A DNA stretch of 64,000 nt from Coriobacteriia bacterium (lineage in GTDB: Bacteria; Actinomycetota; Coriobacteriia; Anaerosomatales; PHET01). The notes under the pieces are model-generated. The model saw nothing but the letters and a program-made list of their open reading frames with translations. It was not told where the DNA came from and did not search any database. Below, in pieces: positions 20,923-60,190 of this stretch. The position numbers and the translations under genes were made by a program. Each line of letters opens with the position of its first letter. Within the stretch, counting starts at the first letter, position 1. The stretch spans positions 4,027 to 68,026 of the forward strand of contig JAXMKZ010000022.1 in NCBI GenBank assembly GCA_034370385.1, read 5' to 3'.

Positions 20923-20961
20923 GCTGTCAGCCTCCCTCTCGTGCGTGAACCAACAAGCCAT

Positions 20962-30044: not shown

Positions 30045-31745
30045 ATGAACAGTGAAACGAGTCCCTCCCCCGAGCGTACCGACTTCATCCGCGAGATTGT
30101 GGCAGCTGACCTGCTCGAAGGACGCTGCGAGTCCGTTGTCACGAGGTTCCCGCCGGAGCCCAACGGGCATCTCCACATCGGCCACGCGAAATCCATCTGC
30201 CTGAACTTCGGCATCGCCAACGAGTTCGGTGGCCGATGCCACCTGCGCATGGACGACACCAACCCCGTCAAGGAAGAGCAGGAGTACGTCGACGCGATTC
30301 AGACCGACGTGCGCTGGCTGGGCTTTGACTGGGGCGAGCATCTGTACTTCGCCTCGGACTACTTCGAGCAGCTCTACGATTGGGCATGCCATCTGGTGAG
30401 TACCGGAAACGCGTACGTCGACGACCTCACCGCCGAGGAGATTCGCGAGCATCGCGGCACGCTCAAGGACCCGGGCAAGCCCAGCCCGTGGCGCGATCGT
30501 TCGCCTGAGGAGAACCTCGAGTTGTTCGCCCGAATGCGTGCCGGAGAGTTCGCAACCGGCGAGAAGGTCCTTAGGGCGCGCATCGATATGGCTTCCGGCA
30601 ACATCAACCTGCGCGATCCGATCATCTATCGCATCATGCACGCGGAGCATCCTCGCACGGGTGACACGTGGTGCATCTATCCCACGTATGATTTCGCACA
30701 TGGTCAGTCCGATGCGATCGAACACATTACTCATTCGGTATGCACGCTGGAGTTCCAGGACCACCGACCACTGTACGACTGGTTCATCGAGCATCTTCCG
30801 GTGCCTTCGACGCCTCACCAGTACGAGTTCGCACGTCTCAATCTGACGCACACGGTGCTTTCCAAGCGCGTGTTGCTCCGGCTTGTGAACGATGAGCACG
30901 TGCGCGGCTGGGATGACCCCCGCATGCCGACTCTGTCGGGGCTGCGGCGACGCGGCTTTCCCGCCCAGGGACTTCGCGACTTCGCCGCGATGATCGGCGT
31001 GGCCAAGTCTGACGGGGTCGTCGAGATCGAGATGCTGGAACACTGCGTTCGCAGCGTGCTGAATCGCACCGCTCAGCGTCGTTTCGCAGTCCTTGACCCG
31101 CTGAAGGTCGTGATCGAGAACTTCCCCGAGGGACTCGTCGAGATGATGGATGCACCCAACAACCCGGAGGATCCGGACGCCGGAACCCGTGAAGTGCCGT
31201 TCACGCGCGAGCTGTGGATCGAGCGCGAGGACTTCATGGAGGACCCCCCCAAGAAGTTCTTTCGTCTGGCTCCGGGACGCGAGGTTCGGCTGCGGTCCGC
31301 GTACTTCATCACCTGCAACGAGGTCATCAAGGATCCGATGGGCAAGGTGATCGAGCTGAGGTGTAGCTACGATGAGTCGACACGCGGGGGCTCAGCTCCC
31401 GACGGGCGGCGACCCAAGGCAACGCTTCACTGGGTTTCGGCGGCACATGCGATCGAGGCCGAAGTCAGGCTGTACGACCACCTGTTCGCCGTTGCCTACC
31501 CTGGCTCCGAAGGTCGTGACCTCTTCGACGATCTCAATCCGGCATCAGAAACGATTGAGCGCGGTTGCTTCGTCGAGGCATCGTTGCTCCAGGTTCCCGT
31601 GGGCCAGACCGTCCAGTTCGAGCGGGTAGGATACTTCTGCCCTGATCCGGACTCCGGGAGCGGTGCCCTCGTCTTCAACCGCACGCTGTCACTTAAGGAC
31701 TCCTGGGCCAAGCTGCAGTCCCAGGGCCGTCACGACGCGCCGTAG
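30045..31745 (+). CDS. glnS: Glutamine--tRNA ligase
   Basis: TDFIREIV...[25 protein letters not shown] (HIGH) and LTHTVLSKR (KMSKS variant), collinear with E. coli GlnRS as recalled. An ATG at 30045 (no SD) or a TTG at 30027 (SD inside the hairpin) are alternative starts. Confidence 0.9.
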
Positions 31746-31789
31746 CGCTCACTGGGGCGGCCACGGGGTATCGGGCTGCTAGAATGGGC

Positions 31790-32142
31790 GACGGAGTGGG
31801 CCAGACGGCCGCGCGATCCCGTTTCGGGTTCGTGAGGAAAGTCGGGGCTCCACAGGGCAGGGTGCCTGCTAACGGCAGGGCGCGGCGACGCGACGGAAAG
31901 TGCCACAGAAAAGAAGACTCCCCCGCCGCAAGGCGGGAGAAAAGCTGAAACGGTGCGGTAAGAGCGCACCAGCGTCACGGCAACGTGGCGGCTTGGCAAA
32001 CCCCACCCGGAGCAAGGGCAAATAGGAGCGGCCAAGGTCGGCCCGACCGACGCTCGGGTTAGCCCGCGTGAGGCGTACGGCGACGTGCGTCCCAGATAGA
32101 TGGTCGTCCACGACAGAACCCCGCTTACCGGCCCACTCCAAG
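31790..32142 (+). ncRNA. rnpB: RNase P RNA, bacterial type A
   Basis: Contains GAGGAAAGTCGGGGCTCCACAGGGCAGGGTGCC, GAAAGTGCCACAGAAAAGA, GGTAAGAGCGCACCAG and ACAGAACCCCGCTTACCGGCC. The P1 pairing is ggagtgggcc / ggcccactcc. An extended -10 promoter (tgcTAGAAT, 31777-31785) lies ~7 nt upstream of the 5' end. Ends are approximate to +/-10 nt. Confidence 0.92.
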
Positions 32143-32153
32143 CGGGTGAGACA

Positions 32154-32188
32154 CGAAGGCCGGCCCCGAATCCTCGGGCCGGCCTTCG
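32154..32188. terminator. Hairpin between rnpB and the convergent giant gene
   Basis: cgaaggccggccc-(9 nt)-gggccggccttcg forms a 13-bp GC-rich stem. U-tracts are weak on both strands. Confidence 0.5.
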
Positions 32189-32209
32189 TTGCACATTCTG
32201 GAGTTCGTA

Positions 32210-35200
32210 TCAGTAGTAGACGATCTGAACGGTGTCGGGCCCGAGCTTGATCATGTCGAAGAACTTGACTCTGGCTGAGCCCGAGTACGTCCTCACGTTA
32301 TTGACGGGGTCAGTGAGCCTGACGCTCCACTTGACGCTTCGGAACTGAGATCCTGACGTGCGCGCGGGAACGGTGTATTTCACCGTGTAGCTACTGCCTG
32401 CTTTGACGATGGTGTTCCTGACCCGCTTGCCGTCGATCGTCACGACCATCCTGCCGTACTGAGAGATCTTGCCGATCCTGACCGAGACGGTTCGCTTTGA
32501 GGCAGAGGAGCTGACCCGTGCTGAGGGCGCGGTCTTGTCGAGTATCACGGTTCGGTTCACCGTCGTGGTGTGGCCCATCCTGCTGTAGGCCGTGAGCGAC
32601 AGTGTGTGCCGGCCGCTAGAGAACTTCGTGAGGCTCGGCGTCAGCGTAGTAGAGATCGAGGTCCCTGCGGTGGACTTTGTCACCACGGTCTTGCCGTCGA
32701 GCTTCAAGACGAGCTTGGTCACGCCCGCACCGTCACTTGCCTTGACCGGGATCGAGGGCTTGGCACCGATAGCAGACGAGACGCTGCCGAAAGCAGCAGT
32801 GGGTGGAGCAGCGTCGACGTACGCGTAGTGCGTGCCGATGGGACCGTAGTTGCCCGCCCAGTCCTGCGCGCGGACCCGGAACGTGTGAACGCCATCAGTC
32901 AGTCCGTCTGCGGTGAACTTGGTGACATTCTGGCTGGTCTCCACCGCGGCAAGATCAGTGGCGGATGTGGACTTGGCGTTGACCGAAACCCAATACCGTG
33001 CAACACCGGAAAGTGAGTCCGCCGCCGGATTCCACTTGAACACACGCCGTGGGCTGGTGCTCCAGCTGGCGACGCCATCGTCGGGGGTTACGCCGGTTGG
33101 CGCGATGGTATCGACCAGAATCTGGCGACGGGCAACCGCCGAACCGATGGACCCGTTCTTCTCGCGACCGACTGCATGCAGGGTCCACGTGCCCTCGACG
33201 CTCGACATGCCCATTTCGTCGGCCACGCCACCAAGGTTGATGTTGAGGGAACCAGTCGCTGTGTAGTCGCTGCCAGCCGTTGGTACCGTGTTGGAAGACC
33301 GATCCATCACGTAGTAGTAGCCGTCACCGGACACGACATCAGGGGCCGCCAGAATCTGGCCTAGGAAGACGTATGTGTTCGCAAAAGACGTTTCACTCGG
33401 GTGTGACGTAGATGTGATGATCGGCCGCAGTCCGGACTTATCCAGGCTGATCGTACGGGTGAACACGCCTCGGTGGCCCAACAGGTCGTACGCCTCGATG
33501 GTCAAGGTATGCGGTCCCTGAGCGTACGAGGACAGGTTCGGAGTCATCGTGGTGGTCACCGAAGTTCCGGACACGTTCTGGCTCAGAAGGACCGTTCCAT
33601 CGATACTCAAGGTGATTCGGGTGACCTCAGCGCCGTCGGTGGCGCGGATAGTGAACGTCGGGGTGACACCGACCGGATCCGGAGGCTCGTTGACGAACAG
33701 CTCCGGTGGAGCGGCGTCGACGTAGGCCTTGTGTAGCCCGATGGCGCTGTAGTTGCCCGCCTTGTCACGAGCGCGCACGCGGAAGGTGTGGACGCCATCC
33801 GACAGGCCATCAACGGTGAACTGCGTGGTAGTGAGCGTGGTCTCAACCGCCGCCAGATCCGCCGGCGCCTCGGAGCTGGCGTTGATCGAAACCATGTAGT
33901 GCGAGAGCCCTGACAGCGCATCGACCGAGGGGGCCCAGGTGAAGGTTCTGCGGGGACTGGCCGTGTAGGTTGCGACACCGTCGTCCGGGACGGGCGTGGT
34001 CGGCGGCTCCATGTCTGCGAGGAACGGGTAGTCGACAGCGACGCTGACGTCGCCCAGTACATCCTTGGTTACGGCGTGGAGGTACCACTGCCCCCACGGC
34101 TCAGTACCAAGCTCCGTCGCGGCAGCCATGAGATCGACGGCAAGCGAGGTCCCGGTTGTGAACCCCCAGGTGGTCGGAGTGAAGGCCGCGGTGGGCGACT
34201 TATCCAGGCGATAGTAGAAGCCCTCAACCCCGTCGAAATCCGCAGGAGGTTCAAGCTGTGCGTAGAAGTAGCGCGACGAACTGAACGTGCTCGTGGTCGG
34301 GTGTGAGACGCTCGTCACCTTCGGCGGATTGGGTGGCCCGTACTTCAGAATCTGGACCGTGTTGTCCCGCGCGTTGGCGACGACCACTTCAAGCGGCGCG
34401 TCCGCATCAAGCTGCGCGATGGCAACGGCGCTCGGCTGACGACCGACGTCGATGTCACCCAGGAAGCGCATAACCCCGTTATCCTGCTGCTTGTAGATTC
34501 CCACTGAACCCGTAGAACGCAAGAAGGCCGCGTCTCCCAGGTTGTAGCTGTTGGCAACGATGAGGTCGTTCCTCGAATCCTGGTTCAGGTCCCCGATGGC
34601 CACCGCAACGGGCGCCGGCGAAATGTCGTTGCCCGTGCGGAATGTGGTAGAGGGGGTGACGGGCGCGAGTTGACCGATCGAGTTCTGGTACGAGATTCCC
34701 ACCTGACCGGTCCTGTAAGAAGCTCCGACGACATCGTTGAGACCGTCACTATTGAGGTCACCGATCTTCACGTCGCGAATCTCGCCAAGTAGGTCGGGCT
34801 GTGAGAGTCCCACCGATAGGTTCGATTGCCCTCCGCGACCAAGGTAGAAAGGCAGGAAGCCACCGGACTGGAATCCGGCGATTCCGAAGTCAGGCCAGTT
34901 GTCACCGTTGACGTCTCCGATAGCCGCTGAGAACGGGTTGCCCAATCCGTCGACGATCGTTCGATGCGTGTTCCAATGGTCGCTGGAAACAGTCCGTGTC
35001 GTCCATGAGGCACCAGAGTCCGTTGTGACCAGAATGCGCCCACCGGCTGCAGAGATGGCACCGCGGCCACCCGTGTGGAAGCTGATTCCGCGAAGGTCGA
35101 CTGTGGCTCCAAACGGCGAAACTAGGGAGCTCCACGTCACACCGGCGTCAGTGGACCGATAGATGAGGCCGTCGTTTCCGACGGCCATCACGATAGAGTT

Positions 35201-36589
35201 GTCCGCCCAAGCGACGGCGCGCAGTTCATCGGTGATGCTGGCAGAGATCGCTGTGGCTGCTCCCGACCAAGACGCGCCCGAGTCCAGCAGCATACCAACC
35301 GAACCGCCCGGAAGACTGCTGTCACCAACAGCTACCGCGCGGTCACCCGCCGGACGGACGGCGATGGCATGAAGGTCTCCGGTGAGAGCGGTGACGGATA
35401 TCTCGGTTGAGCCCTGGAAGGCCTTGTTGGTCTGGAAGACAAAACCGCCAGCGCCGCAGGTCAGCAGCTCGCCCGGCGATGGAGAGGCCGCGCCCAGAAG
35501 ATTCACTAATGGCAATCTGTTCTCTTCTGACGGAACCTCCACTGCCGGATCCGGAAGCCTCGACACGTGTGCGACCTTGCCGCCCGGGCCAACGACAAAC
35601 GCACTGGACTCGGTGTCCCATACGATCGAGGTGGCGTAGGGTTGCTCAGCCGTCAGCTGAATGACCGGCCGCCACGTGGCGCCGTCGTTTCCGCTGTAGG
35701 CGATGAAGTTGTTTCGCATAGCCGCAAAGACGATGCGGCTGAACCGATTACCCGAGATCGTGCGAATGCCCGTGGTATCGAACACCTCGTCGGAGTTGTG
35801 CGAGCTGTCAGAGCGCGGGCTCCACAGGTATCGGGGGGGAATGGCGGCAGGGGACCCGTCATCCCCGACATCGGCCGCAATCGTGCTGAGCGGGAGGCCG
35901 TCGCCGTCAGTTCGTGCGGCAAGAAAGCCCTTGCGGGTCACGGTCATGCCATTGGTGACGGGCTCTCCGCCGCCGTCGACTGTCCGCCGATACACGATCG
36001 TGCCGCCCTCGTCGCCGTTGGCGAGCGAGTGGAAGACGGGGACGGCGATGCCGAGATTGCCCGGTGCGTCGACGGTGCCTACGTCGAACCCGAAGCCTGG
36101 CGCAGCAGGTCCGCTACTTACGAGCCAGTACGCGTCGTAATACGCGGGAAGCGACAACAGATAGTCGAAGCCGCCGGACGGGTTGCGCCGAAACACGTAC
36201 AGCTCCTGGCTCATGGAATCGCCGACGATCACTTCGGACAGATTGTCCCCGGTGATGACGTCAGCGATGAAGACCGATGCAGGCGCGCTGAAGACGTTCG
36301 TGCCAGGGGCGCCCGTGAGGGGAACCCGCACGCCAGGGCTGAATGCACCTCCTCCGCTCTGCAGAAGTACCGTGAAGGATCGATCGGCGTAGTTGGCCGT
36401 CACGATGTCCTTGAGGCCATCGCCGTTCACATCCCCGATAGCCAGACCCTTCGGGGAGGTCCCGACCGGCAAGGGGGGGCCAGGCCTCAGGGTCTTGGCG
36501 GGCGCGATCCCGACGGGGACCAAGACTACCACCAGAAGCGCGGACAACAACGCGCGCGCAACTGCGGACCATCCAGCACGGATGACCAT
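32210..36589 (-). CDS. Giant secreted protein (1459 aa): FG-GAP/VCBS-like repeats, BNR (Asp-box) repeats and tandem Ig/FN3-like modules
   Basis: Signal peptide (LLVVVLVPVGIAPA|K). FG-GAP-like IGDVNGDGLKDIV, IGDVNGDNWPDFGI, IGDLNSDGLNDVV and IGDLNQDSRNDLIV. Asp-boxes SGNDGATW, STDAGVTW and TTDSGASW. The C-terminal half consists of duplicated ~300-aa modules. RBS aacaggag. No LPXTG or lipobox seen. Confidence 0.85.
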   Translation of the reverse strand: MVIRAGWSAVARALLSALLVVVLVPVGIAPAKTLRPGPPLPVGTSPKGLAIGDVNGDGLKDIVTANYADRSFTVLLQSGGGAFSPGVRVPLTGAPGTNVFSAPASVFIADVITGDNLSEVIVGDSMSQELYVFRRNPSGGFDYLLSLPAYYDAYWLVSSGPAAPGFGFDVGTVDAPGNLGIAVPVFHSLANGDEGGTIVYRRTVDGGGEPVTNGMTVTRKGFLAARTDGDGLPLSTIAADVGDDGSPAAIPPRYLWSPRSDSSHNSDEVFDTTGIRTISGNRFSRIVFAAMRNNFIAYSGNDGATWRPVIQLTAEQPYATSIVWDTESSAFVVGPGGKVAHVSRLPDPAVEVPSEENRLPLVNLLGAASPSPGELLTCGAGGFVFQTNKAFQGSTEISVTALTGDLHAIAVRPAGDRAVAVGDSSLPGGSVGMLLDSGASWSGAATAISASITDELRAVAWADNSIVMAVGNDGLIYRSTDAGVTWSSLVSPFGATVDLRGISFHTGGRGAISAAGGRILVTTDSGASWTTRTVSSDHWNTHRTIVDGLGNPFSAAIGDVNGDNWPDFGIAGFQSGGFLPFYLGRGGQSNLSVGLSQPDLLGEIRDVKIGDLNSDGLNDVVGASYRTGQVGISYQNSIGQLAPVTPSTTFRTGNDISPAPVAVAIGDLNQDSRNDLIVANSYNLGDAAFLRSTGSVGIYKQQDNGVMRFLGDIDVGRQPSAVAIAQLDADAPLEVVVANARDNTVQILKYGPPNPPKVTSVSHPTTSTFSSSRYFYAQLEPPADFDGVEGFYYRLDKSPTAAFTPTTWGFTTGTSLAVDLMAAATELGTEPWGQWYLHAVTKDVLGDVSVAVDYPFLADMEPPTTPVPDDGVATYTASPRRTFTWAPSVDALSGLSHYMVSINASSEAPADLAAVETTLTTTQFTVDGLSDGVHTFRVRARDKAGNYSAIGLHKAYVDAAPPELFVNEPPDPVGVTPTFTIRATDGAEVTRITLSIDGTVLLSQNVSGTSVTTTMTPNLSSYAQGPHTLTIEAYDLLGHRGVFTRTISLDKSGLRPIITSTSHPSETSFANTYVFLGQILAAPDVVSGDGYYYVMDRSSNTVPTAGSDYTATGSLNINLGGVADEMGMSSVEGTWTLHAVGREKNGSIGSAVARRQILVDTIAPTGVTPDDGVASWSTSPRRVFKWNPAADSLSGVARYWVSVNAKSTSATDLAAVETSQNVTKFTADGLTDGVHTFRVRAQDWAGNYGPIGTHYAYVDAAPPTAAFGSVSSAIGAKPSIPVKASDGAGVTKLVLKLDGKTVVTKSTAGTSISTTLTPSLTKFSSGRHTLSLTAYSRMGHTTTVNRTVILDKTAPSARVSSSASKRTVSVRIGKISQYGRMVVTIDGKRVRNTIVKAGSSYTVKYTVPARTSGSQFRSVKWSVRLTDPVNNVRTYSGSARVKFFDMIKLGPDTVQIVYY
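32525..34321 (-). repeat. Intragenic tandem duplication (2 x ~900 bp / ~300 aa) within the giant gene
   Basis: aa ~757-1055 and ~1056-1355 are collinear. Examples: DDGVATYTASPRRTFTWAPSVDALSGLSHYMVSINA...DGVHTFRVRARDKAGNYSAIGLHKAYVDAAPP versus DDGVASWSTSPRRVFKWNPAADSLSGVARYWVSVNA...DGVHTFRVRAQDWAGNYGPIGTHYAYVDAAPP. The DNA copies are diverged but alignable by eye. Confidence 0.75.
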
Positions 36590-36687
36590 GACGACTCCTG
36601 TTCTACGACGACGAATGCTTCAACTACTGCGACGTGGTCAAGACGTATGCCTCACACTATACTCCACTCCCGCGTGCGCAAGCCACC

Positions 36688-38652
36688 TCACACACGCTCG
36701 CGTATCGTGCGCGCGAGGTCGCCACCTCCAAGCGACGCCAATCTCACATACTCCGCCCCCGACATGCGCGCTATCTCGCGAGCCGATCCGCCGCCAGCAG
36801 CTGATGCCGACGTGTCAATGAGCAGGGCGTTCACGCCGGCGGCGCGCAGCTTGACCGCGGCCGACTTCGCGTCATCGCTGCCGACGCCGCCATCCACGCC
36901 CACGTTCCCGCGGCCGTCGGTCACCAGCACGAGCCAGGGCACGGTATCAGGCTGCCTCCGGATCTCGGTTTCGAGTAGGAGTAGGGACTTCAAAATGCCG
37001 GCCGCGAGTGGAGTGGCACCACCGGTAGGAAGCCCCTGCAGTTTCAGGTTCGCCAGTTCGACGCTGCCAGTGGGCGCCAGGACGACGTCTGCGCCATTGC
37101 CCCTGAACGAGACAAGCGCAACCCTGTCACGACGCTGGTATGCGTCGACCAGCAACTCAAGCACAGCGGCCTTGGCAACCTCGATGCGCTTCGATGCCCC
37201 CATCGAACCGCTTGCATCCACACAGAACACGATTGAAGCCCCCACCTTGCGGGTGCGGACCTTCGTACGAATGTCGTCTGAGCCGACGGACACCGCGAGC
37301 CCGGAGTCAGCCGTGTCGTTGGGAGTCGCCGCTGCGGCCCGGATGGTGGCATCAAGGGCGACGTCGCCCATCCGCACGGCTCCCTTGGCCATCTCGGAGC
37401 GTGCGTACCGGCCCCGCCCGTCGTCAACGACGCTCTCCTGCCTCCGGCCGGCGATCGAGCGTCTCGTTCGGTCCATCGCCGACTCGAATGCCACGTCAGG
37501 CATAGCGGGTTCACTGGAAGCCGAATCGATCGAGCCCACCGACTCAAAGATGCTTGCCTGTCCCTGTCCCGGACCCGTCGGACTCGATGCGCTCGGCTCA
37601 CCCACGGGGCTGTCGCCCGATAGGGCTCGGACGAGCGAATCGCGCAGTGAGTCAGTGTCGGCGCGTACGTCATCGAACGGCATGCGCCGAAGCCGGTGCG
37701 CCAGAACCAAGGCCGCCACACTCTCAACGTCGGCAAGAGAGACCTCGCCGCGACCGTCAAGGGCCGCATGGGCCGCCGCGGCGCGTGCCATCACGCTGTC
37801 GGCACGGTGTCCGTCCACTTTCGCGCGTATCGCAAGGTCTGCGATCGCGTAGAGGATCTCCTCGGGTGTCTTGACGGTGCCTGCGCGCAGTTGGGAATGC
37901 TTGATCCGAGTCCGCAGCTCTCCCTCAGCGTCCTCCCAAGAACGCGCGAAGCCCGTCGGGTCCTCTTCGAAGTCGTGACGGCGACGCATGATCTCGACGC
38001 GCGCCTCCGGCTCCCTCATCGCTTCCACCTCGACACACAGCCCGAACCGATCGAGCAGCTGCGGACGAATGTCGCCTTCCTCGGGATTCATCGTCCCAAC
38101 CAGAATGAAGCGCGCAGGATGCTGCAGGGAAACGCCCTCACGCTCCACGGTGTTCACGCCCATGGCAGCGGCGTCGAGCAGGGTGTCGACGAGGTGATCG
38201 TCAAGGAGGTTGACCTCGTCGACGTAGAGGATGCCGCGGTTCGCCGCTGCAAGAAGACCGGGATGGAACTCACGCTCTCCCCTCTTGAGCGCCGCCTCGA
38301 AGTCGAGCGTCCCCACCAGACGGTCTTCCGTGGCAGACACGGGCAACTCGACGATGTGTGGAAGGCGCGACTCCTTGGGCAACGTGCCCTCTTCACGCCT
38401 CTCGCGGCATTCCGTGCACCATGACGAGGGCTCTGCAGGGTCGCAGCCGAAGCGACACCCGCTTACGACAACGATCGCGGGCAGCACGCTGGCGAGCGCG
38501 CGAACTGCGGTCGACTTGGCCGTGCCCTTCTCGCCGCGAATCAGGACGCCGCCGACGCGGGGGTCGACCGCGTTGAGGATGAGTGCCGCCTTCAGTGCCT
38601 CCTGGCCGACGATGGCCGAGAACGGGAACGTCTGTACCGGCCTTGGGGTCAC
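36688..38652 (-). CDS. ChlI/ChlD-type chelatase-like fusion: N-terminal AAA+ ATPase plus C-terminal vWA (MIDAS) domain
   Basis: [16 protein letters not shown], Walker [10 protein letters not shown], the Cys-rich ChlI insertion GCRFGCDP...CTECR, Walker [23 protein letters not shown], and v[14 protein letters not shown]. The GTG at 38652 is preferred (TGA-cGGGAGccca-GTG junction with the upstream gene); the track ATG at 38745 would overlap that gene by 83 nt. Confidence 0.85.
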
Positions 38653-38662
38653 TGGGCTCCCG

Positions 38663-39823
38663 TCACATCCACTGGAACGACCCGCAGCTGGCAGGGTCAC
38701 GCTGGCCCTTGTTGGGACACGTGTCGTGGTAGACGCAGTCATCACAGGTCATCGTGTCGAGCGGATCTGTGGCCACAACGGGCGGAAGGTCGACGAAATC
38801 CGAGTCACCCGCCACCGTCGAACTGACGTCGAGGTCATCGGAAACCTGGGCGGACTCGCCTGCGGTCGGATCCGCGGCAGCTGAGTCGCCCGTGTTGTCG
38901 GCCGCCGGCAGGCTCGCGGGCGACGAAGGCGGAATCACCGGCGGGACAGGAATCTCGGGCTTGTGCGGCTCGCTGACAGGTGACGATTCGGCACCATCCG
39001 GCCCCGGTGCAGACTGATCATCAGCCGCGGGAGGCAGCAATACGTCGACCTCAGACACGGTAGCGACCTCGTCGTACGCGCCGAGAATGACCGGGCGGGA
39101 CGACGCCATCGTCGCATCATCCCCAGGTGCTCTCACGAGCGAACCCTCGTCGTCTCCCGGCTCGTCCAGAGCATCGAGATCAAGCGGCGAGACATCCGGC
39201 TTAACGGCCCAAGGCCAAGAGCCTTCGTCGGCACCCTCGATCTGGGCCTCAACCACCATGGCGTCTGACGGAGGCTCCGCGAGCGGGTCGGCGCCCTCAT
39301 CGACCGGCTCCTCCTCGGCGGGCAGATCGGGTTCGTCGGGCTCAACCGGCCCGACGGACTCGGGAGCCACGATGCCCTCGGCCTCCAGACTGACCGCGGA
39401 CCGGCGGAGCGCCTCCTTGAGGTCGGGGGCAGCGTCGCTCTCATCGTCCAGCCCCTCGATCACCGCGGCGAGCGACTCGTCCGCCTCATCGACGGTGGGT
39501 GTGGCCTGCGTATCGGCTGCGACAGCACCGTCATCCTCGGCCGGTTCACCCTCGGACGGCCCAACCTCGTCGGTCGGCCCAACCTCGTCGGCCGGCTCAA
39601 CCTCCTCGGGCTCAACAACCTGCGATGCCGCCGGCCTGACAAGAAGCACGGGGGTGGCAGCGTCCAGGTCCGCGACCAGTACCTCGCAATCCCACGCATC
39701 GAACCCGGGATCTGCCGTGACGCGCGATAGCTCGCTCATGGCACTGGCGCGGGTCTCGAAGACACCCTCAGCAAGGAGCCGGAGCGAATCGTCGGGTCCC
39801 TTTCCGATCAGGAAGAACGGCAT
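38663..39823 (-). CDS. Hyper-acidic, Pro/Ala/Val-rich (likely disordered) protein with a short folded-looking N-terminus and a C-terminal C-x2-C-x5-CP-x9-C motif
   Basis: 386 aa. The N-terminal ~70 aa [35 protein letters not shown]... are followed by a long D/E/P-rich region and the end ...[32 protein letters not shown]3-rich codons throughout. A promoter-like element lies upstream. Confidence 0.65.
39557..39610 (-). repeat. 18-bp tandem repeat x3 inside the acidic-protein gene
   Basis: cggcccaacctcgtcggt / cggcccaacctcgtcggc / cggctcaacctcctcggg, encoding ...[17 protein letters not shown]... Confidence 0.7.
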
Positions 39824-39885
39824 GGCCTACCCCTCGTCGAGTGTGTGCGAACGCGCGAACCACCTGCGCGTGACGACGCGCTCCT

Positions 39886-39914
39886 ATCGTAGAGCCGCAG
39901 ACCGAAGGCGGCAA
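39886..39914 (-). promoter_or_regulatory. Candidate sigma70-type promoter of the acidic-protein / ChlID operon
   Basis: Minus-strand TTGCCG-17 nt-TACGAT, ~60 nt upstream of the ATG at 39823. Confidence 0.4.
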
Positions 39915-39948: not shown

Positions 39949-40809
39949 TCACGAGCACGCTACACGAAGCGCCTTGAGGCGAGCGATGTTGGTCGCATCC
40001 TTCTCGGGCACCTCGCCCGGCATCTCGGTGACCACGGGAACCTGCGCAAGATCGGGCTCGCAGATCATGGCACGGAAGCCCTCGGTTCCGATGGAGCCAT
40101 CGCCTATCCACGCATGTCGGTCACGGTGGCTACCCCGGTCGAACATGCAGTCGTTGGCGTGAATGAGTCCGACCCGGTCCAGCCCAAGGACCTCTCTCAT
40201 CTCTGACACCAGCTCGACCCAGCCCACCGAAGTGGACAGGTCGTCCCCGAATGCGAAACCGTGGCATGTGTCGAAGCAGATGCCAATCACCTCAGGCGGC
40301 AACTCCGTGGCTGCGATCACTGAGGCCAGCTCCCTCACCGAGCCGCCGAACGTGCTCCCGGCTCCCGCGGTGTTCTCGAGGAGCAGCCGCGCACGGTCAG
40401 GACTGACTGCCGCGAGTTCATACGCCTCGGTGATCGCTTTCCCGCAGCGGACGGCCGCGACCACGGGATCGGCCTTCGGGTCGGTCCCGAGGTGGGTCAC
40501 AACCCCATCGACCCCAAGTGCTGCACCTCGACGCAGTTCGTCAGCCAATGCGACCACGGATTTCTCGCGCATGATCGGATCGTCCGTGGTCAGGTTGATG
40601 AGGTAGGCGGTGTGAGTGAACACGGGACCGAATCCTCGTGCCGCTCTATCGGCCACGAACGCTTGGGCCGCGTCCGAATCCAGCGCCGCGCCCTTCCACT
40701 GCCGAGGGCTCTTCGCGAAGAGCTGGATGCACTCGCATCCCACGTCTTGGGCATAGTCGAGTGCGGCACCATAGCCCTTCGAGACCGACACGTGCGCTCC
40801 TATGAGCAT
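39949..40809 (-). CDS. nfo: Endonuclease IV (AP endonuclease family 2)
   Basis: MLIGAHVSVSKGYGAALDYAQDVGCECIQLFAKSPRQW is collinear with the start of E. coli Nfo as recalled, and metal-ligand His/Asp/Glu positions are present. The ATG at 40809 is preferred over the track start at 40848. Confidence 0.88.
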   Translation of the reverse strand: MLIGAHVSVSKGYGAALDYAQDVGCECIQLFAKSPRQWKGAALDSDAAQAFVADRAARGFGPVFTHTAYLINLTTDDPIMREKSVVALADELRRGAALGVDGVVTHLGTDPKADPVVAAVRCGKAITEAYELAAVSPDRARLLLENTAGAGSTFGGSVRELASVIAATELPPEVIGICFDTCHGFAFGDDLSTSVGWVELVSEMREVLGLDRVGLIHANDCMFDRGSHRDRHAWIGDGSIGTEGFRAMICEPDLAQVPVVTEMPGEVPEKDATNIARLKALRVACS

Positions 40810-40873
40810 GCGACTCCCGTCACGAGGGGCAGTTAGGACCTGGTCCATTCTACCCGTACAGCGGATACACTCG

Positions 40874-42130
40874 ATGGTGTCAGTGCAACCGCAAGAGGTG
40901 ACAGTTTCAGTGATCGACGTCGATGCGACGATTCTTCCTCCGTGGAGCGCCCGCGCGCTTCTGCACGTGGATTTGGACGCCTTCTTCGCCGCCGTCGAGC
41001 AGCTGGATCACGCCGAGTGGCGCGGCCGACCGGTCATCGTGGGGGGTCACAGCTCTCGACGAGGGGTGGTATCGACCGCAAGTTACGAGGCACGCGCTTT
41101 CGGCGTGCATTCGGGCATGCCCTCGGTCAGGGCCGCCTCGCTGTGTCCCGATGCGGTGTGGGCGCCACCCCGGTTCTCGCGGTACAAGGAGCTTTCCGAT
41201 GCGGTGTTTCGCATCTTCGAGCACCACGCGGCCCTCGTGCAGCCTGTGTCTGTGGACGAGGCATTCCTTGACGTCACCTCCGGGCGCTACGCAGGCGAGC
41301 ATCCCGTAGAGATCGCCCGCCGGATCAGGGCCGATGTCGCGCTTCTTGGGCTTACCGCCTCGGTGGGAGTTGCGACATCCAAGACGGTGGCCAAGATCGC
41401 ATCAGACCACGACAAACCCGATGGTCTCACCGTGGTGTGGCCCGGTGAGGAGGCGCAGTTCCTGGCGCCCCTGCCGGTTCGCGCCATGGGCGGCATCGGA
41501 CCCCGAACCACGGATCGGCTTCAGGCCCTGGGAATCCACACCCTGGGGAGCCTGGCTGCGCTCGACGAGATGACGGCCCGTTCGGTGCTTGGCGTGGATG
41601 GCCTCGGTTACGTGCTCCGCGCCCAAGGGGTAGATCCGAGTCCCGTTCGAGACAACGAGGCCGTGAAGTCGGTCTCGAAGGAGAGAACCTTCGCTACGGA
41701 CAAGCGCACCGTGGCAGAGGTTGAGCATGAACTCCAAGACCTTGTCTCGCGAGTATGCTCGCGCCTGCGGTCCAAGGGAGTCGCCGGACGAACCGTGACG
41801 GTGAAGCTTCGTTTCGGCGACTTCACCACGCGCACAGCCCGCAAGACGCTTGCCGACTCAACGAACGATGAGACTATCGTGGGCGAGGTCGCCCTCGACC
41901 TCTTGCGGGATACGTGGTCGGCCGGGGTGGGGCTGCGTTTACTTGGCGTCGGCGTCTCGGGGCTTTCCACACCCGCCACGCAGTTGGACCTGTTCGGGGC
42001 GGACCCGGCCGTAACAAAGGTAGGGCGAACCGGACTGGTGGAGAACATCGATGCGATTCGGAAGAGGTTTGGGCATGATGCGGTACGATTCGGCACCGAG
42101 CTAACCGATCGCAAGGGTCCCGAGAGATGA
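40874..42130 (+). CDS. dinB: DNA polymerase IV (Y-family), catalytic residues present
   Basis: LHVDLDAFFAAVEQ, SVDEAFLDVT and the little-finger region. ATG at 40874 (MVSVQPQ...); the track start at 40802 overlaps the divergent nfo. Confidence 0.88.
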   Translation: MVSVQPQEVTVSVIDVDATILPPWSARALLHVDLDAFFAAVEQLDHAEWRGRPVIVGGHSSRRGVVSTASYEARAFGVHSGMPSVRAASLCPDAVWAPPRFSRYKELSDAVFRIFEHHAALVQPVSVDEAFLDVTSGRYAGEHPVEIARRIRADVALLGLTASVGVATSKTVAKIASDHDKPDGLTVVWPGEEAQFLAPLPVRAMGGIGPRTTDRLQALGIHTLGSLAALDEMTARSVLGVDGLGYVLRAQGVDPSPVRDNEAVKSVSKERTFATDKRTVAEVEHELQDLVSRVCSRLRSKGVAGRTVTVKLRFGDFTTRTARKTLADSTNDETIVGEVALDLLRDTWSAGVGLRLLGVGVSGLSTPATQLDLFGADPAVTKVGRTGLVENIDAIRKRFGHDAVRFGTELTDRKGPER

Positions 42131-42564
42131 ATCCTCACCGCGTCATCATGGCTGCAGCGGTCGCTTGTGTCCTCATGGCACCAGGCTGTGCTCCTCCACC
42201 TGAGGACCCTGTGACGACCGGGGTTCCGGCTGGCCGGCAAGCCGAGTCGGTGTCGCGCCCCGGACTCACGCGAACCGGAGACCAGAACGAAGCCACTGCC
42301 GTCGGCACGCTGGTATTCCGTCGCGACCAGGGCGGTTTCTTCGGCTTGGCGGACATGACTCCCTCTCAAGAACCGTCCACCGATGCGCGCATTCTTGTCG
42401 TTCTCGTTCAAGAGGACGGCAATCGAAGCGCTCCGGACCTTGCCCCTCTGGTGGGCGCCTACTGTGCGTTTTCCGGCACCCTTCGCACCGAGACGACGCT
42501 CACGCCCATCCCCGAGCTGGTCTTTGACTCATACCGGGTCCTCGTCCCTGTGCCTGGGCCCTAG
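42127..42564 (+). CDS. Hypothetical lipoprotein (paralog A)
   Basis: 145 aa. Lipobox LMAPGC. The ATG overlaps the dinB TGA (ATGA at 42127-42130). Confidence 0.6.
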   Translation: MNPHRVIMAAAVACVLMAPGCAPPPEDPVTTGVPAGRQAESVSRPGLTRTGDQNEATAVGTLVFRRDQGGFFGLADMTPSQEPSTDARILVVLVQEDGNRSAPDLAPLVGAYCAFSGTLRTETTLTPIPELVFDSYRVLVPVPGP

Positions 42565-42637
42565 CTCGGTGAACCGCCGGCTGGTTTCAGTCGTCCAAGT
42601 GGGTGCGAACACTGCAACTTCGATCCGAGGAGGCCGA

Positions 42638-43090
42638 ATGCTTCTCAAGGCGTTGGTAGCGGCAGCACTGGTCGGGACCCTGTCCGTAGCTGTCGGATGC
42701 TCTGGGCCACAGTCCGGTCTCGAACCTGAGCCGGCTCCGATTGTCGAATCTCCTCCGGCGGAGTCCCCCGCGGCGGGTTCGCGGCTGGCTTTGGGACTGT
42801 ATGAGTTGGAGGATGGAACGGCTCAGGCGCTCGGAACCCTCGAGTGGGTCGATCTTGAGGGTGGGTTTTGGGCGATCAAGGGTGGAACCGAGGCGGAGGG
42901 TAACGTCGGCGCAACCGTCGCGGTACTTGCCAACGGTCCCGCTTTCGAACAGGAACTCAAGCCGCTGGAGGGCAAGACGGTCATGATCGTAGGTACCCTC
43001 CTGGATGGAGCATCCATCCGCATGGCAGGTCCCGAGATCGAGATGACCGAAGTCACTGAGGTCTCCGACACTATCGATCCGGCCCAGTAG
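42638..43090 (+). CDS. Hypothetical lipoprotein (paralog B)
   Basis: ATG at 42638 preceded by gaggagg. 150 aa. Lipobox SVAVGC. Shares GTL..(7-8 aa)..GGF(F/W) and ...GTL... blocks with paralog A. Confidence 0.6.
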   Translation: MLLKALVAAALVGTLSVAVGCSGPQSGLEPEPAPIVESPPAESPAAGSRLALGLYELEDGTAQALGTLEWVDLEGGFWAIKGGTEAEGNVGATVAVLANGPAFEQELKPLEGKTVMIVGTLLDGASIRMAGPEIEMTEVTEVSDTIDPAQ

Positions 43091-43133
43091 AGCTCTCCGG
43101 GTCTTCGCTGCATGAAACGAGGCGGCTGGGGCG

Positions 43134-46100
43134 TCACGCTCCGGCCGTTTCGGATTCAGCTGCGGCCCACGACTCCTCTTCGGGCGCTCCGGCACCACCA
43201 AGGGACGGACCCATCGGTCCGCTCGGCACGCCCCGGCGCAGCCGTACCGGAGAGCCGCCCGGTGATCTTACGACGTAGGGCCGCACGTCTTCGGCCACAA
43301 TCGCGAGACCTCGTTCGTGATTGTTCTGCAAGGTCCCATCCACGAGGTAGGCGCGATGCTTCACTATGGCGTCGCCGGCGCGCTGAAGCGCATCCTCAAA
43401 CACCACTACGTCGAGCAAACCGGTGGCGTCCTCCAGCGTGAGAAAGCACGTTCGCTTCCCCGAGCGCGTCCGTGGGGTCTGGGCCCGCTCTCGGACTCCG
43501 GCCACGCGCACCCTCGTGCGGTCAGGTAGGCCGCGCAGGTCGCGTGCGAAGGTGACCCCACGTGCGATGAGGTCGGCCTCTGCCAAATCCAACGGGTGGC
43601 TCGTGAGAGAGAGTCCCGTGAGCTCAAGTTCGGCTGAAAGCCTGCGCGCCACGCCCCAACCGCTCACGTGGTCCGGATCCTCAGGCGGCCGGATTCGCGC
43701 CGGCGCGAGGCACAAGGTGTCGTCACCGGCGACCCCCTCGCGCGCGATAACCGCCTTGAGTTCAGGTAGGAGCGCAAGCATTTCATCGCGCGTCGGCGGC
43801 CTGCCCGCCCCGGTGGTCCCGAGCCCGTCGAGTGCCCCGATGCGGATGAGCGACTCCGCCGCCGGCAGCTCGGCACGTGTACGGCGCACAAAGTCAGCGA
43901 GGTCCCGAAAGGGCCGCACCGCGCGTTCCACCGGAACCGTTGCAAGAAGGCGAGCCGTCATCGCATGGACATCCTTCAGGCCGATACGGATGGCCGCCCC
44001 ATCCGAGGCGACCGTATGGTCGACGGCGCTGTCGTTGACGTGGGGAGCCAGAATCTCGATGCCATGGCGTCGTGCGTCGTTGACCACAAGCCGAGGCGTG
44101 TAGAAGCCCATAGGTTCGTGGTTCAGAATCGCGCAGCTGAACTCGGCCGGGTAGTACGTTTTCAGCCATGCGCTGGCGTAGGAGACCACCGCGAAGCACG
44201 CGGCATGCGCCTTGTTGAAGCCGTACGCCGCGAAACCCTCAAGCTGCCGAAAGACCTCAGCAGCCACCTCAGCATCTACCCCGCGCGCCATCGCCTTCTC
44301 CAAGAAGTGAGCGCGGATCGCCTCCATCTGTTCGCGGCTCCGTCCCTTGGTCATGGCACGACGCAACGAATCCGCCTCGGCCAGCGTGAAGCCCGCGACT
44401 TCGCGTGCAACGAGCAAGACCTGCTCCTGGTAGACGATGACGCCATACGAGTCGGCAAGTACCTCTCGCATGTTTTCATGCGGAACCGTCACCGGCTCGA
44501 TTCCATGCCGACGGCGGATGAACGGGGTGATCATCTCGGCTTCGAGTGGTCCGGGCCGAAACAGCGAGATCTGAGCGATGATGTCTTCGAAGCGGTTCGA
44601 CTTCAGCCGTGTCGACAGATTGCGTTGGCCACTGCTCTCAAGCTGGAACATCCCGACTGAGTCCGCCGCAGCGATCATCTCGTAGACACGCGGATCGTCC
44701 TTAGGCAGTTCGAACGGCTCAGGGACCGCAGCGACTCCCACACGCTCGCGTGCCATCTCGACCGCTGACGAGATGGCCGAATGCATCCGTAGACCGAGAA
44801 TGTCCATCTTCACGAGTCCGAGCGCCTCGATATCGTCTTTGTCGTACTGCGAGACGACCACCCCCTTGGCCGCCCACTGAAGCGGCATCCAGCTCGCCAC
44901 CGGGTCTCGGGTGATGATGAAGCCGCCCAGATGGGTGCCGAGGTGAGTCGGCGTGCGGTCGAGCTGTTCGGCGATCTCGAGAATGGGCGCGTAGCGCGCC
45001 TCATGCAGCGGGTGATCGCGGCACTCGGGATAGGTTTCAAGCACCTCCCTGATCTTGCGCGCGCTCACCCATGGCAGATAGCGGGAAAGCGAGTTGACCT
45101 CTGCGATTGGCAGTCCGAACGCTCGAGCCGCAATACGCACAGCGCTTCTGGCCGTGGTGGTCTGCACGGTGGCTACCATAGCGACGTGCTCGGAGCCGAA
45201 CCGCCGATAGATGAACTCGATGACCTCGTCGCGTCGCGCGGAGTCGAAGTCGACGTCGATGTCGGGCATCTGCCGGCGCTCGGGATTCAAGAAGCGCTCG
45301 AAGAGCAGGTCATGGGCGATGGGGTCCGCGTCGGTGATACCCAGAGCGAACGCGACGATGCTATCGCCTGCGCTCCCCCGTCCGCTGCAGCGGATCCTCT
45401 TCGCCTTCGCGAAGTCCACGATCTCCTTCACCACGAGGAAATACTCCGCAAACCCCATCTGGTCTATAAGCGTCAGCTCGTGCTGCAGCCTGCGAATCGC
45501 CTCCGGGATCATCGGCGAATAGCGCCGCTCCAGCCCACGCCACGACTCCTTGGCGAGCACCGAATACGCCGTCTCGCCCCTTGGCAAATCGGCTCCCGGG
45601 AAGTGGAACTGCCCGAGCGGCAGCTCGAAATCGGCACACATCGAAGCGATTTCGAGAGTCGCGTCACAGGCACGTTCGCACCCGGCGAACAGGCGGCGCA
45701 TCTCTGTGGGGGATTTGAGCCACAGTTCGGCGTTGGGCCGGTCGTAGGGTCCTGGCAGCGCCATGCGCGCACCGACGCTTGCGAGCACATCGTGGATGCG
45801 GTGGCCCTCAGGGCGCAGATAGTGGACGTCGTTCGTAGCCACCACGGGAAAGCTGAGGTCATCGGCCGCCTCGACAAGACCGCCGATGATACGGGGGCTC
45901 TCCGCGGTGAGCGGATGCACCAGCTCGACGAAGAACGCGCCGGGCTCGAAACAGTTCGCCAGGCGCATGAGTGCCGATCGAGCCCGCCCGGGGCGTGCGT
46001 GTGCCACCGAAAGCGCTGCCTCGCCGTTCCCGCAACCCGACAGGGCGATGAGCCCTTCGCCGAAGTGTTCCAGATCGCGAAGGGAGACGACGCTTGGTAC

Positions 46101-46514
46101 CTCGGGCCCACGCAGATGAGTACGGGAGAGCAACCGACACAAGTTGCGATAGCCGGCGAAATCGCGCGCGAGCACCGTCAGATGAAAACCGAACGCCGAC
46201 GCGCGACCGAATCCCACCCGTGCCGGAAGAACGAGACGCGACTCGGGCGGCAGATCGGCCTCCTCGCCAAGCACGCCGGCGGCTTCAACGACGATCTCGC
46301 AACCGATGATCGGAGCGATGCCGGCATCCCTACAGGCGCGATAGAAGCGGATGGCACCCGAAAGACCCTGATGGTCCGTGAGCGCCAGAGCGGGCATCTC
46401 GAGCTCCGCCGCACGCTCCACGAGCGCGGGTAACGGACAGGCGCCGTCGTGGAAGCTGAAGTTGGAGTGTGTATGCAGGTGCACAAAGGCCGTCGACACG
46501 GGAACCCGTCCCAC
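43134..46514 (-). CDS. dnaE2: Error-prone DNA polymerase III alpha-like subunit (DnaE2/ImuC-type)
   Basis: 1126 aa, GTG start. The N-terminal PHP domain starts FVHLHTHSNFSFHDGA, and the alpha-subunit palm/fingers are present. The length and the LexA-box-controlled operon context fit DnaE2 rather than replicative DnaE1. Confidence 0.8.
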   Translation of the reverse strand: MGRVPVSTAFVHLHTHSNFSFHDGACPLPALVERAAELEMPALALTDHQGLSGAIRFYRACRDAGIAPIIGCEIVVEAAGVLGEEADLPPESRLVLPARVGFGRASAFGFHLTVLARDFAGYRNLCRLLSRTHLRGPEVPSVVSLRDLEHFGEGLIALSGCGNGEAALSVAHARPGRARSALMRLANCFEPGAFFVELVHPLTAESPRIIGGLVEAADDLSFPVVATNDVHYLRPEGHRIHDVLASVGARMALPGPYDRPNAELWLKSPTEMRRLFAGCERACDATLEIASMCADFELPLGQFHFPGADLPRGETAYSVLAKESWRGLERRYSPMIPEAIRRLQHELTLIDQMGFAEYFLVVKEIVDFAKAKRIRCSGRGSAGDSIVAFALGITDADPIAHDLLFERFLNPERRQMPDIDVDFDSARRDEVIEFIYRRFGSEHVAMVATVQTTTARSAVRIAARAFGLPIAEVNSLSRYLPWVSARKIREVLETYPECRDHPLHEARYAPILEIAEQLDRTPTHLGTHLGGFIITRDPVASWMPLQWAAKGVVVSQYDKDDIEALGLVKMDILGLRMHSAISSAVEMARERVGVAAVPEPFELPKDDPRVYEMIAAADSVGMFQLESSGQRNLSTRLKSNRFEDIIAQISLFRPGPLEAEMITPFIRRRHGIEPVTVPHENMREVLADSYGVIVYQEQVLLVAREVAGFTLAEADSLRRAMTKGRSREQMEAIRAHFLEKAMARGVDAEVAAEVFRQLEGFAAYGFNKAHAACFAVVSYASAWLKTYYPAEFSCAILNHEPMGFYTPRLVVNDARRHGIEILAPHVNDSAVDHTVASDGAAIRIGLKDVHAMTARLLATVPVERAVRPFRDLADFVRRTRAELPAAESLIRIGALDGLGTTGAGRPPTRDEMLALLPELKAVIAREGVAGDDTLCLAPARIRPPEDPDHVSGWGVARRLSAELELTGLSLTSHPLDLAEADLIARGVTFARDLRGLPDRTRVRVAGVRERAQTPRTRSGKRTCFLTLEDATGLLDVVVFEDALQRAGDAIVKHRAYLVDGTLQNNHERGLAIVAEDVRPYVVRSPGGSPVRLRRGVPSGPMGPSLGGAGAPEEESWAAAESETAGA

Positions 46515-46958
46515 CTAGTCCTGGATGCCGATGAGCTGCCAGGTGTTCTCTGATCGGTCGAAGACCAGATCGTAGACACCGCCACGCGCGAGCACACGCC
46601 AGTAACGGCGTGAGACGTGTCGTCGCGGATCCCACCAAGCGCGCTCTGACGACCAGACCTGCAGCACGGCGTCTACGCCGAACCTCCTGGTCCCACGTAT
46701 GAATGCGAGCGGGCATCCACGCCCGGTATCCCACTCCACGACGATGTCCTCGGCCACACGTTTCGGAGCGACCGAGCCATCGCGGCGCACGAGATCGGAG
46801 GCACTGAGTATCCAGGGGCTGGCGAGCAACTCGACGATGATCGGTAGCTTCGATATTCGACCACCATCGAACAGTTCGAGTGGCTGACCTGAACGAGCAC
46901 CGTTGAAACGCTTGATTTCGGCGTTGCGACCCATTCCCACCATTCCTTGCGCAGTCAT
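46515..46958 (-). CDS. Small ImuB-C-terminal-like protein (DUF6504-like)
   Basis: 147 aa from the ATG at 46958; alternative starts at 46943 or 46934. The C-terminus PLAFIRGTRRFGVDAVLQVWSSERAWWDPRRHVSRRYWRVLARGGVYDLVFDRSENTWQLIGIQD resembles, as recalled, the ...PERI..WWD...RDYF...G..WLF.D.....W.L.G tail of ImuB proteins. Its stop TAG abuts the dnaE2 GTG. Confidence 0.6.
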   Translation of the reverse strand: MTAQGMVGMGRNAEIKRFNGARSGQPLELFDGGRISKLPIIVELLASPWILSASDLVRRDGSVAPKRVAEDIVVEWDTGRGCPLAFIRGTRRFGVDAVLQVWSSERAWWDPRRHVSRRYWRVLARGGVYDLVFDRSENTWQLIGIQD

Positions 46959-46995
46959 CGACCCCGGTTGATCGCGCGTGACGCGCCACGGTTCG

Positions 46996-47024
46996 ACTAT
47001 ACCGAACATATGTTCGGTCTACAA
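46996..47024 (-). promoter_or_regulatory. SOS promoter with embedded LexA (Cheo-type) box
   Basis: Minus strand: TTGTAG-accGAACATATGTTCgg-TATAGT, i.e. -35 and -10 hexamers separated by 17 nt. The spacer contains the perfect palindrome CGAACATATGTTCG (47003-47016). Confidence 0.8.
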
Positions 47025-56635: not shown

Positions 56636-57100
56636 CTAGCTCAGGGATTTCACCAGTGTCGCCATCTCGATGGCAGACATGGCAGCCTCCCAGCCCTTGT
56701 TCCCCGCCTTGGTGCCCGAGCGCTCGACAGCCTGCTCGATGGTATCGGCGGTGATAACCCCGAAGAGCACCGGCACACCTGAATCGAGCGAGGCCTTTGC
56801 CACGCCCTTGCTGACTTCGGATGCGATGTAGTCGAAGTGTGGCGTGCCGCCCCGAATGACGACACCGAGCGCCACAACGGCGTCGTAGCGGCCGGAGTCA
56901 GCCATGCGTTTGGCAACGAGCGGAATCTCGAATGCGCCGGGAACGAAGGCGACGTCGATGTCCTCTTCGGAGAGTCCGTGGCGCACGAAGGCGTCCTGCG
57001 CCCCCGAAAGAAGCCGTGAGCCGAGCAGTTCGTTGAAGCGGCTGATCACGATGCCGACCTTGAGGCCGGTTCCAACCAGATGTCCCTCGTACTTGACCAT
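56636..57100 (-). CDS. ribH: 6,7-dimethyl-8-ribityllumazine synthase
   Basis: 154 aa with [16 protein letters not shown] and GTKAGNKG. Confidence 0.92.
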
Positions 57101-57127
57101 TAGTGCCGTCCTTTCGCCTGCGCTCCT

Positions 57128-59028: not shown

Positions 59029-59044
59029 CGAATTCCCTTCTCGG

Positions 59045-60175: not shown

Positions 60176-60190
60176 CGCTGCGATGAACCT

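Follow-up and report, generated by a model that had tools for sequence, protein, structure and literature searches.

The window analysed here is a 64-kb stretch (64,000 nucleotides) of a contig from an uncultured Coriobacteriia bacterium, and all coordinates given below are positions within it. On its minus strand lie two adjacent genes, the first encoding a hyperacidic 386-aa protein with a C-terminal four-cysteine (Cys4) module, and the second a 654-aa protein in which a ChlI-like AAA+ ATPase module is joined to a von Willebrand factor A (vWA) domain with a metal-ion-dependent adhesion site (MIDAS). The second gene is called ChlD in what follows. To our knowledge, the only understood role of class I chelatase motors of this kind (ChlI/ChlD and CobS/CobT) is to drive a large subunit that binds a porphyrin or corrin. 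The original prediction, made from the letters of the window, was that this motor has no such subunit nearby and that the acidic protein, and possibly also a giant surface protein encoded downstream, could be its client. The features of the locus are collected in Table 1.

The acidic gene and ChlD

The layout ascribed to the locus was recovered in full, as the acidic open reading frame (ORF), its TGA, the 10-nt spacer and the GTG of the 654-aa ORF all lie where they had been placed. The ChlD gene is a single unbroken frame whose GTG start is supported both by where its homologues begin and by the NCBI protein MDZ4168998.1. Upstream of the acidic gene, the letters proposed as a promoter are present but their promoter status is doubtful: the two hexamers fit 8 of 12 consensus positions, a promoter scan called no site there, and the scan as a whole yielded sites at chance level, no more than shuffled sequence did. 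It had also been stated that no hairpin terminator follows ChlD. There is indeed no canonical terminator; however, an 11-bp G+C-rich hairpin does overlap the ChlD stop codon, and it is the absence of a U-tract that sets it apart from a canonical one. The fold z-score of the region comprising the stop codon and the 98-nt gap is 0.73, no better than that of shuffled sequence.

The 654-aa protein is a ChlD-type AAA+/MIDAS chelatase-motor subunit with intact catalytic residues. It is matched by the Pfam models Mg_chelatase, AAA_5, AAA_lid_2, VWA_2 and VWA, the first and fourth of which had been named in advance as a check, and the AAA+ motifs, the Cys-rich ChlI insertion and the DASGSMG motif reported for it were all found. 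Among NCBIfam models, TIGR02442 ("putative cobaltochelatase") fits best, at 723.9 bits and over positions 1-640 of 641; BchI-ChlI (1.2e-125) and BchD (3e-127) match as well. The curated cutoffs are missed for both TIGR02442 (723.9 vs 779.45) and TIGR02031 (425.9 vs 499.55), and the full-length alignment to the former points to a divergent subfamily rather than a partial match. Among solved structures, phmmer retrieved the ChlI chains 8osf, 6l8d and 1g8p from the PDB at E-values of 1e-99 to 1e-92, and the vWA domain matches the integrin-I domain of BchD (2x31) with an E-value of 4e-26.

Within the alignment of the Coriobacteriia ChlDs, the Walker A and B motifs, the arginines, sensor 2, the four cysteines of the insertion and the five MIDAS residues are invariant. 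The AAA+, MIDAS and Cys residues are equally kept in CobN-linked and other ChlDs, with the exception of C82: C66, C70 and C79 are near-universal in CobN-linked and orphan ChlDs, whereas C82 is a cysteine in 14 of 36 CobN-linked and 30 of 37 other ChlDs from outside the clade, Gly being the usual alternative. The motor is a divergent member of a known family, and none of these residues is special to this gene. A novel AAA+-vWA fusion was ruled out, as the protein has the canonical three-part layout of ChlD/BchD; the view that the fusion is unusual did not hold, the same layout, Cys insertion, Walker, sensor and MIDAS residues being found family-wide, CobN-linked members included. The basic linker motif and the Cys insertion were likewise considered, and rejected, as clade-specific partner sites, since the linker motif and three of the four cysteines are family-wide and C82 is common outside the clade.

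The acidic protein represents a new, hitherto undescribed lineage-specific family. No sequence match was found in Pfam, NCBIfam or the PDB, so that the homology check proposed for it returned no described relative. Its 121 close homologues expanded in an exhaustive profile search to 474 clusters at 50% identity, 454 of them at E <= 1e-10, which share a common architecture at lengths of 260-560 aa, and all named sources are metagenome-assembled genomes of uncultured Coriobacteriia or Actinomycetota. The mean content of Asp+Glu among 207 members is 23.7%, as against 3.6% for Lys+Arg. Conservation is confined to islands that are split by variable acidic, Pro-rich spacers. In the same 207 sequences, the N-domain is present in 192, the WPW motif in 204 and the Cys4 module in 199, and an RPVIxGxY motif occurs in about two thirds of members. 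Residues C360, C363, C369, P370 and C380 and the terminal GSFQW are invariant in the alignment (CxxCx5CP…CGSFQW). These observations bear out the suspicion that the acidic ORF is a real gene, as they define a sizeable family under purifying selection.

In AlphaFold2 (AF2) models, the N-domain is predicted with confidence, the predicted local distance difference test score (pLDDT) being 96-98 when the full-length protein is modelled and 88.6 when the domain is modelled by itself. Helix 135-148 scores about 70-78 and the Cys4 module 63-77, and the remainder is predicted to be disordered. A Foldseek search of the N-domain against the PDB gave no match with E < 1. One further idea, that loss of the RPVIxGxY motif tracks loss of ChlD in relatives of the locus (which are labelled with L-numbers), was rejected. 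The motif is missing in 5 of 6 distinct ChlD-less and in 15 of 46 ChlD-bearing sequences; there is no clean association, because the ChlD-bearing sister L108 lacks it and the ChlD-less L109 has it.

Table 1. Coordinates of the acidic gene-ChlD locus and its parts
Feature	Positions	Strand	Basis or remark
Promoter-like TTGCCG-17-TACGAT	39886..39914	-	Upstream of acidic gene; weak call
Gene for hyperacidic, mostly disordered 386-aa protein	38663..39823	-	No Pfam/NCBIfam model
Folded N-domain, residues 1-65, beta-beta-alpha-beta-beta	39629..39823	-	AF2
Helix motif, residues 135-154, near-invariant E147, G150, P154	39362..39421	-	Alignment; AF2 helix 135-148
WPW motif, residues 203-205	39209..39217	-	(Near-)invariant in alignment
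RPVILGAY motif, residues 243-250	39074..39097	-	Alignment; not universal
C-terminal Cys4 module TCDDCVYxxTCPNKGxRxPAxCGSFQW(K/M) and stop	38663..38749	-	Alignment
Intergenic spacer cGGGAGccca	38653..38662	-	10 nt, Shine-Dalgarno-like GGGAG, from acidic stop to ChlD GTG
ChlD/BchD-type AAA+-vWA gene, 654 aa, TIGR02442-like	36688..38652	-	Pfam, NCBIfam and PDB matches
ChlI-like AAA+ module, residues 9-335	37648..38628	-	Walker A/B, arginine finger and sensor 2 intact
Cys-rich insertion C66, C70, C79, C82	38407..38457	-	All four invariant in clade
Pro/Gly/acidic linker, then basic GRRxxx...GRYxRSE motif, residues 336-469	37246..37647	-	Basic motif family-wide
vWA/integrin-I domain, MIDAS D479, S481, S483, T547, D579, and stop	36688..37245	-	VWA_2, VWA, PDB 2x31
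ChlD stop codon and 98-nt intergenic region	36580..36700	-	G+C-rich hairpin, no U-tract
Gene for 1459-aa FG-GAP/Big_13 surface protein	32210..36589	-	Variable downstream neighbour, signal/anchor-like N-terminus

Linkage of the two genes and distance from CobN

When GTDB genomes were scanned with an alignment of ChlDs, 80 loci were obtained. In a neighbour-joining tree of 84 ChlDs, the Coriobacteriia sequences form a monophyletic clade that is sister to Dormibacterota (chlD-chlI-moxR-DUF58) and to two other actinobacterial lineages, all of them without a nearby CobN. The subfamily is monophyletic, vertically inherited and confined to an uncultured Coriobacteriia clade. The Dormibacterota loci (L025, L030, L042, L043, L049, L061, L064 and others) represent a different orphan ChlD arrangement, in which a separate chlI follows ChlD and no CobN lies within 10 kb. 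In L042, whose downstream genes were scanned and which is the only locus where a genuine MoxR-DUF58 pair was seen, chlI is followed by a MoxR (AAA_3) ATPase and a DUF58 protein, and a malate/lactate dehydrogenase gene lies upstream.

A CobN hidden Markov model (HMM), built from ORFs verified as PF02514, detected no CobN in the 64-kb window, in the in-clade loci of L001-L088 or in 468 kb more of acidic-family loci; at about 70 clade loci the search covered flanks of 10 kb per locus (5 kb for metagenomic loci). Outside the clade, 36 of 72 ChlD loci have CobN within 10 kb, mostly ending right at the ChlD start, and it adjoins ChlD in loci of Streptomyces, Rubrobacter and Dehalococcoidia. The cobN-chlID arrangement is known from Mycobacterium and Streptomyces. 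Among the scanned ORFs of the window there is no cob, cbi or hem/tetrapyrrole gene, and an Rfam scan of the window at gathering thresholds found no cobalamin riboswitch, returning only an RNase P RNA, a flavin mononucleotide (FMN) riboswitch and two tRNAs. The statement that these 64 kb contain no ChlH/CobN, corrin or tetrapyrrole gene therefore stands, the Pfam, Rfam and CobN HMM scans all being empty in this respect.

Within the clade, the acidic gene lies directly upstream of every ChlD for which upstream DNA is available (about 57 loci, namely the window, 14 other distinct loci and 43 metagenomic loci), and 30 acidic/ChlD protein pairs share a contig. The gene is absent from all 72 ChlD loci outside the clade, including those of clades without a nearby CobN. 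Insertions were seen on either side of the pair: upstream of it, an RNase_T/UvrC-like gene separates it from nfo in some loci, and downstream a variable surface protein gene separates it from glnS; none was seen at the junction of the acidic gene and ChlD in the compared loci. This junction measures -10 to +21 nt in about 17 of the 43 metagenomic loci (approximately 40%) and in L003, L008 and L091, the short forms being gaps of 10 or 3-5 nt and overlaps of 4-10 nt. Judging from such junctions, the two genes are probably translationally coupled in many lineages. With regard to the question whether the acidic gene, ChlD and the giant surface protein gene co-occur in relatives, the first two are kept together, but the third is not conserved.

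Additional evidence comes from the vWA domain, which according to a substitution analysis on the ChlD alignment of 84 loci carries 15 of the 22 clade-specific conserved substitutions of the Coriobacteriia ChlDs. The vWA share is similarly high across the three clades without a nearby CobN (15/22, 20/28 and 15/32), as against 13/71, 13/65 and 6/29 in three CobN-linked clades. Directly beside the MIDAS residue T547, the Coriobacteriia clade has A546, whereas 83% of CobN-linked sequences have Arg at this position. The integrin-I/MIDAS domain of ChlD was previously characterized as the Mg-dependent ChlH-binding site (PMC6604950), and since the substitutions concentrate in this very domain, a change of partner at the vWA surface is a reasonable reading. 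Such clustering of substitutions in the vWA domain may mark a change of partner in orphan ChlDs generally.

Several known systems resemble the pair in part. The Mg-chelatase subunits ChlD/BchD and ChlI (2x31, 1g8p, 8osf, 6l8d) have the same ChlI-like AAA+ module, Pro/acidic linker and integrin-I/MIDAS layout. The 654-aa protein differs from ChlD/BchD in the fully intact Walker and sensor motifs of its AAA+ module, in its clade-specific vWA substitutions beside the MIDAS, and in the lack of ChlH, ChlI or chlorophyll genes nearby in the window. The CobN-partnered ChlID subunits of the TIGR02442 type possess the same Cys cluster and an active AAA+ module; however, the 654-aa protein scores below the cutoff of that model, CobN never adjoins it in the clade loci, and the window contains no B12 riboswitch. 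In Rea1/Midasin, an AAA+ ring is combined with a MIDAS domain that holds its protein partners, which carry ubiquitin-like (UBL) domains, by an acidic residue. The concept of an AAA+ ring and a MIDAS domain acting on a protein client is shared by MoxR-vWA pairs such as CoxD/CoxE, which assist metal-centre assembly (PMC3471820). Unlike in MoxR-vWA pairs and Rea1, the ATPase here is of the ChlI type rather than MoxR/AAA_3 or dynein-like, and no AAA_3 match was obtained. No homology was detected between the acidic protein and UBL domains or CoxE, its matches to beta-grasp folds having a probability of <= 0.1.

A precedent is found among anaerobes, in which orphan chlD genes have been described, with unknown function, in genomes without cobN or chlH and without B12 or chlorophyll pathways (Kuznetsov, Milenkin & Antonov 2022, PMC9227772). 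Like the orphan chlD and chlD+chlI genes of that study, the ChlD-type gene here belongs to an anaerobe lineage and has no gene for a large subunit close by. The present locus differs in having no adjacent chlI and in its conserved upstream partner gene, which was not described there; in addition, its 654-codon frame is uninterrupted, with no internal frameshift, unlike frameshifted chlD (fs-chlD). What is new here is the conserved unannotated partner family and its one-way co-occurrence with ChlD. Involvement in anti-phage defence was considered and rejected, as the PADLOC-DB models match neither ChlD nor the acidic protein nor the surface protein.

Possible clients of the motor

The interpretation we favour, at a probability of roughly 35%, is that the acidic protein and ChlD form a CobN-independent module. 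The acidic protein would dock on the MIDAS/vWA domain at a site equivalent to that of ChlH binding in Mg-chelatase, and the ATPase ring would then remodel it, or load or unload metal at its Cys4 site. Because ChlD appears to have been lost at least twice with the acidic gene left intact, the acidic protein would be the primary actor in such a module and ChlD an accessory factor that can be lost. That the ChlD motor has been repurposed altogether to work without a tetrapyrrole-binding subunit, its MIDAS gripping the disordered Cys4 protein and its ATP hydrolysis remodelling this protein or inserting or extracting metal, seems rather unlikely as it stands.

Several observations weigh against a CobN-independent module. 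The first concerns adjacency itself. About 20 genes are syntenic across the clade (dnaE2-imuB-nfo-acidic-ChlD-glnS-gltX-psiE-metK-priA-def-fmt), so that the neighbourhood of any two of them is weak evidence of a functional link and may be inherited rather than selected. Second, L007 and 12 of 55 informative metagenomic loci have an intact acidic gene but no ChlD; what directly follows the acidic gene there is an RNase P RNA with glnS, an ABC transporter gene or a LuxR gene. These ChlD-less acidic genes keep all the hallmark motifs and, in the tree of the acidic protein, belong to at least two distinct branches. It follows that the acidic protein is not merely a client of the motor; the suggestion that it is one agrees with its constant position upstream of the clade ChlDs but not with its intact retention where ChlD is missing. 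If there is any dependence between the two, it would be one-way, the acidic protein persisting without ChlD and ChlD never occurring without the acidic gene.

Third, the short junction is not the rule everywhere. In L005, L006, L012 and L013 the two genes are separated by approximately 75-80 nt, a spacing similar to that in about 26 metagenomic loci, and in these four loci a G+C-rich palindrome within the gap (for example GGCCCGTCTAC CATATAGT GTAGACGGGCC) encloses a promoter-like element that is conserved, (C/G)TGACA-18-TATA(G/T)T. The element could serve ChlD as its own promoter and operator, or it could terminate the acidic gene; it is missing from the window, where the gap is 10 nt. Fourth, the ribonucleotide reductase at 266-2551 (+), which consists of Ribonuc_red_lgC and TSCPD domains, looks like a class II (NrdJ-type), adenosylcobalamin-dependent enzyme, in which case the organism would need B12, whether self-made or not. 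Finally, the tree in which the clade is monophyletic carries no support values.

Some of these observations lend weight to the explanation that stands next, although it too is somewhat doubtful: ChlD would be an ordinary cobaltochelatase motor whose CobN comes from another part of the genome, and the acidic gene would be an unrelated, lineage-specific neighbour held in place by slow rearrangement. The full-length match to TIGR02442 comes near the cutoff of 779 bits, the catalytic, Cys and MIDAS residues are the same as those of CobN-linked ChlDs, and the reductase would provide a use for B12. Region-wide synteny suffices to explain the adjacency, the acidic gene does not need ChlD, and patchy loss of the latter is typical of a dispensable biosynthetic gene. 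On the other hand, CobN was found within 10 kb (5 kb for metagenomic loci) at none of about 70 clade loci as compared with 50% of those outside the clade, and the sister ChlD clades are likewise without a nearby CobN. No cob/cbi gene or B12 riboswitch occurs in the 64 kb, the clade-specific vWA substitutions are absent from CobN-linked clades, and the acidic stop and the ChlD start overlap in many lineages. Indirectly, the requirement for added vitamins of cultured Anaerosomatales, an order to which the source genome may belong, also counts against this explanation; cobalamin genes are not mentioned in their description (PMC9686372).

A further explanation, which we regard as rather unlikely, is that ChlD is an orphan motor with another client, as in other clades without a nearby CobN (Dormibacterota with chlD-chlI, Deltaproteobacteria), and that the acidic protein works independently of it, for instance as a polyanionic scaffold or a DNA mimic tied to repair genes. 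It draws on the wide occurrence of ChlDs without a nearby CobN in unrelated housekeeping contexts (PMC9227772), on the survival of the acidic gene without ChlD, and on its constant place close to imuB and dnaE2, directly after nfo. However, the clade ChlD is never found without the acidic gene upstream (about 57 loci), coupling-type junctions are frequent, the clade offers no second conserved gene close to ChlD as a candidate partner, and in no other clade without a nearby CobN is an acidic homologue found near ChlD.

The secreted FG-GAP/Big_13 giant protein, although its gene follows ChlD in the same orientation after 98 nt and no canonical terminator separates the two, is a highly improbable client, a proposal that its non-conservation effectively refutes: its gene is a variable insertion that is absent or replaced in many relatives (absent in L005, L006, L008, L011, L012 and L089), its counterparts where present are 24-29% identical and range from 487 to 1459 aa, and it has a signal/anchor sequence whereas ChlD is cytoplasmic.

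Should the CobN-independent partnership of ChlD and the acidic protein be true, the latter would be the first candidate client for orphan ChlD enzymes. In any case the clade offers a concrete candidate partner for an orphan ChlD, which makes an open question testable, and it defines a sizeable unannotated protein family whose confidently folded N-domain has no match among solved PDB structures. If instead CobN lies elsewhere in the genome, the locus would mainly serve as a caution that conserved adjacency says little about function where the whole region is highly syntenic.

Neighbouring genes and other features of the window

Most of the other genes in the window are housekeeping genes. They include the nrdJ-type ribonucleotide reductase, dcd, pdxS/T, thiamine genes, priA, metK, def, fmt, gltX, glnS, nfo, an imuB-like polymerase, DUF6504, dnaE2, ideR, plsY and gpsA, together with the RNase P RNA and a rib operon with its FMN riboswitch. 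The RNase P RNA belongs to class A (31793-32143, +, 282.7 bits) and in ChlD-less relatives directly follows the acidic gene; its position indicates that a 154-aa ORF on the minus strand (31730-32194) is spurious.

Upstream of the acidic gene, nfo (39949-40848, -) adjoins a mutasome-like cassette at 40802-47009, which comprises an imuB-like Y-family polymerase (40802-42130, +), a dnaE2-like PHP/Pol III alpha subunit (43134-46514, -) and a DUF6504 protein (46515-47009, -). Some relatives add an exonuclease gene with RNase_T and UvrC_M domains between nfo and the acidic gene. The riboflavin operon (56636-60306, -) is headed by the FMN riboswitch (60187-60306, 114 bits) and encodes ribD, the riboflavin synthase alpha chain, ribBA and ribH. 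Amid housekeeping genes, the ORF at 14098-15345 (-), which has an rve integrase core domain, is probably an insertion sequence element. Two ORFs, at 20425-21996 (+, 523 aa) and at 42383-43090 (+, 235 aa), have no Pfam match, and homologues of the 235-aa ORF are found at the equivalent position in several relatives.

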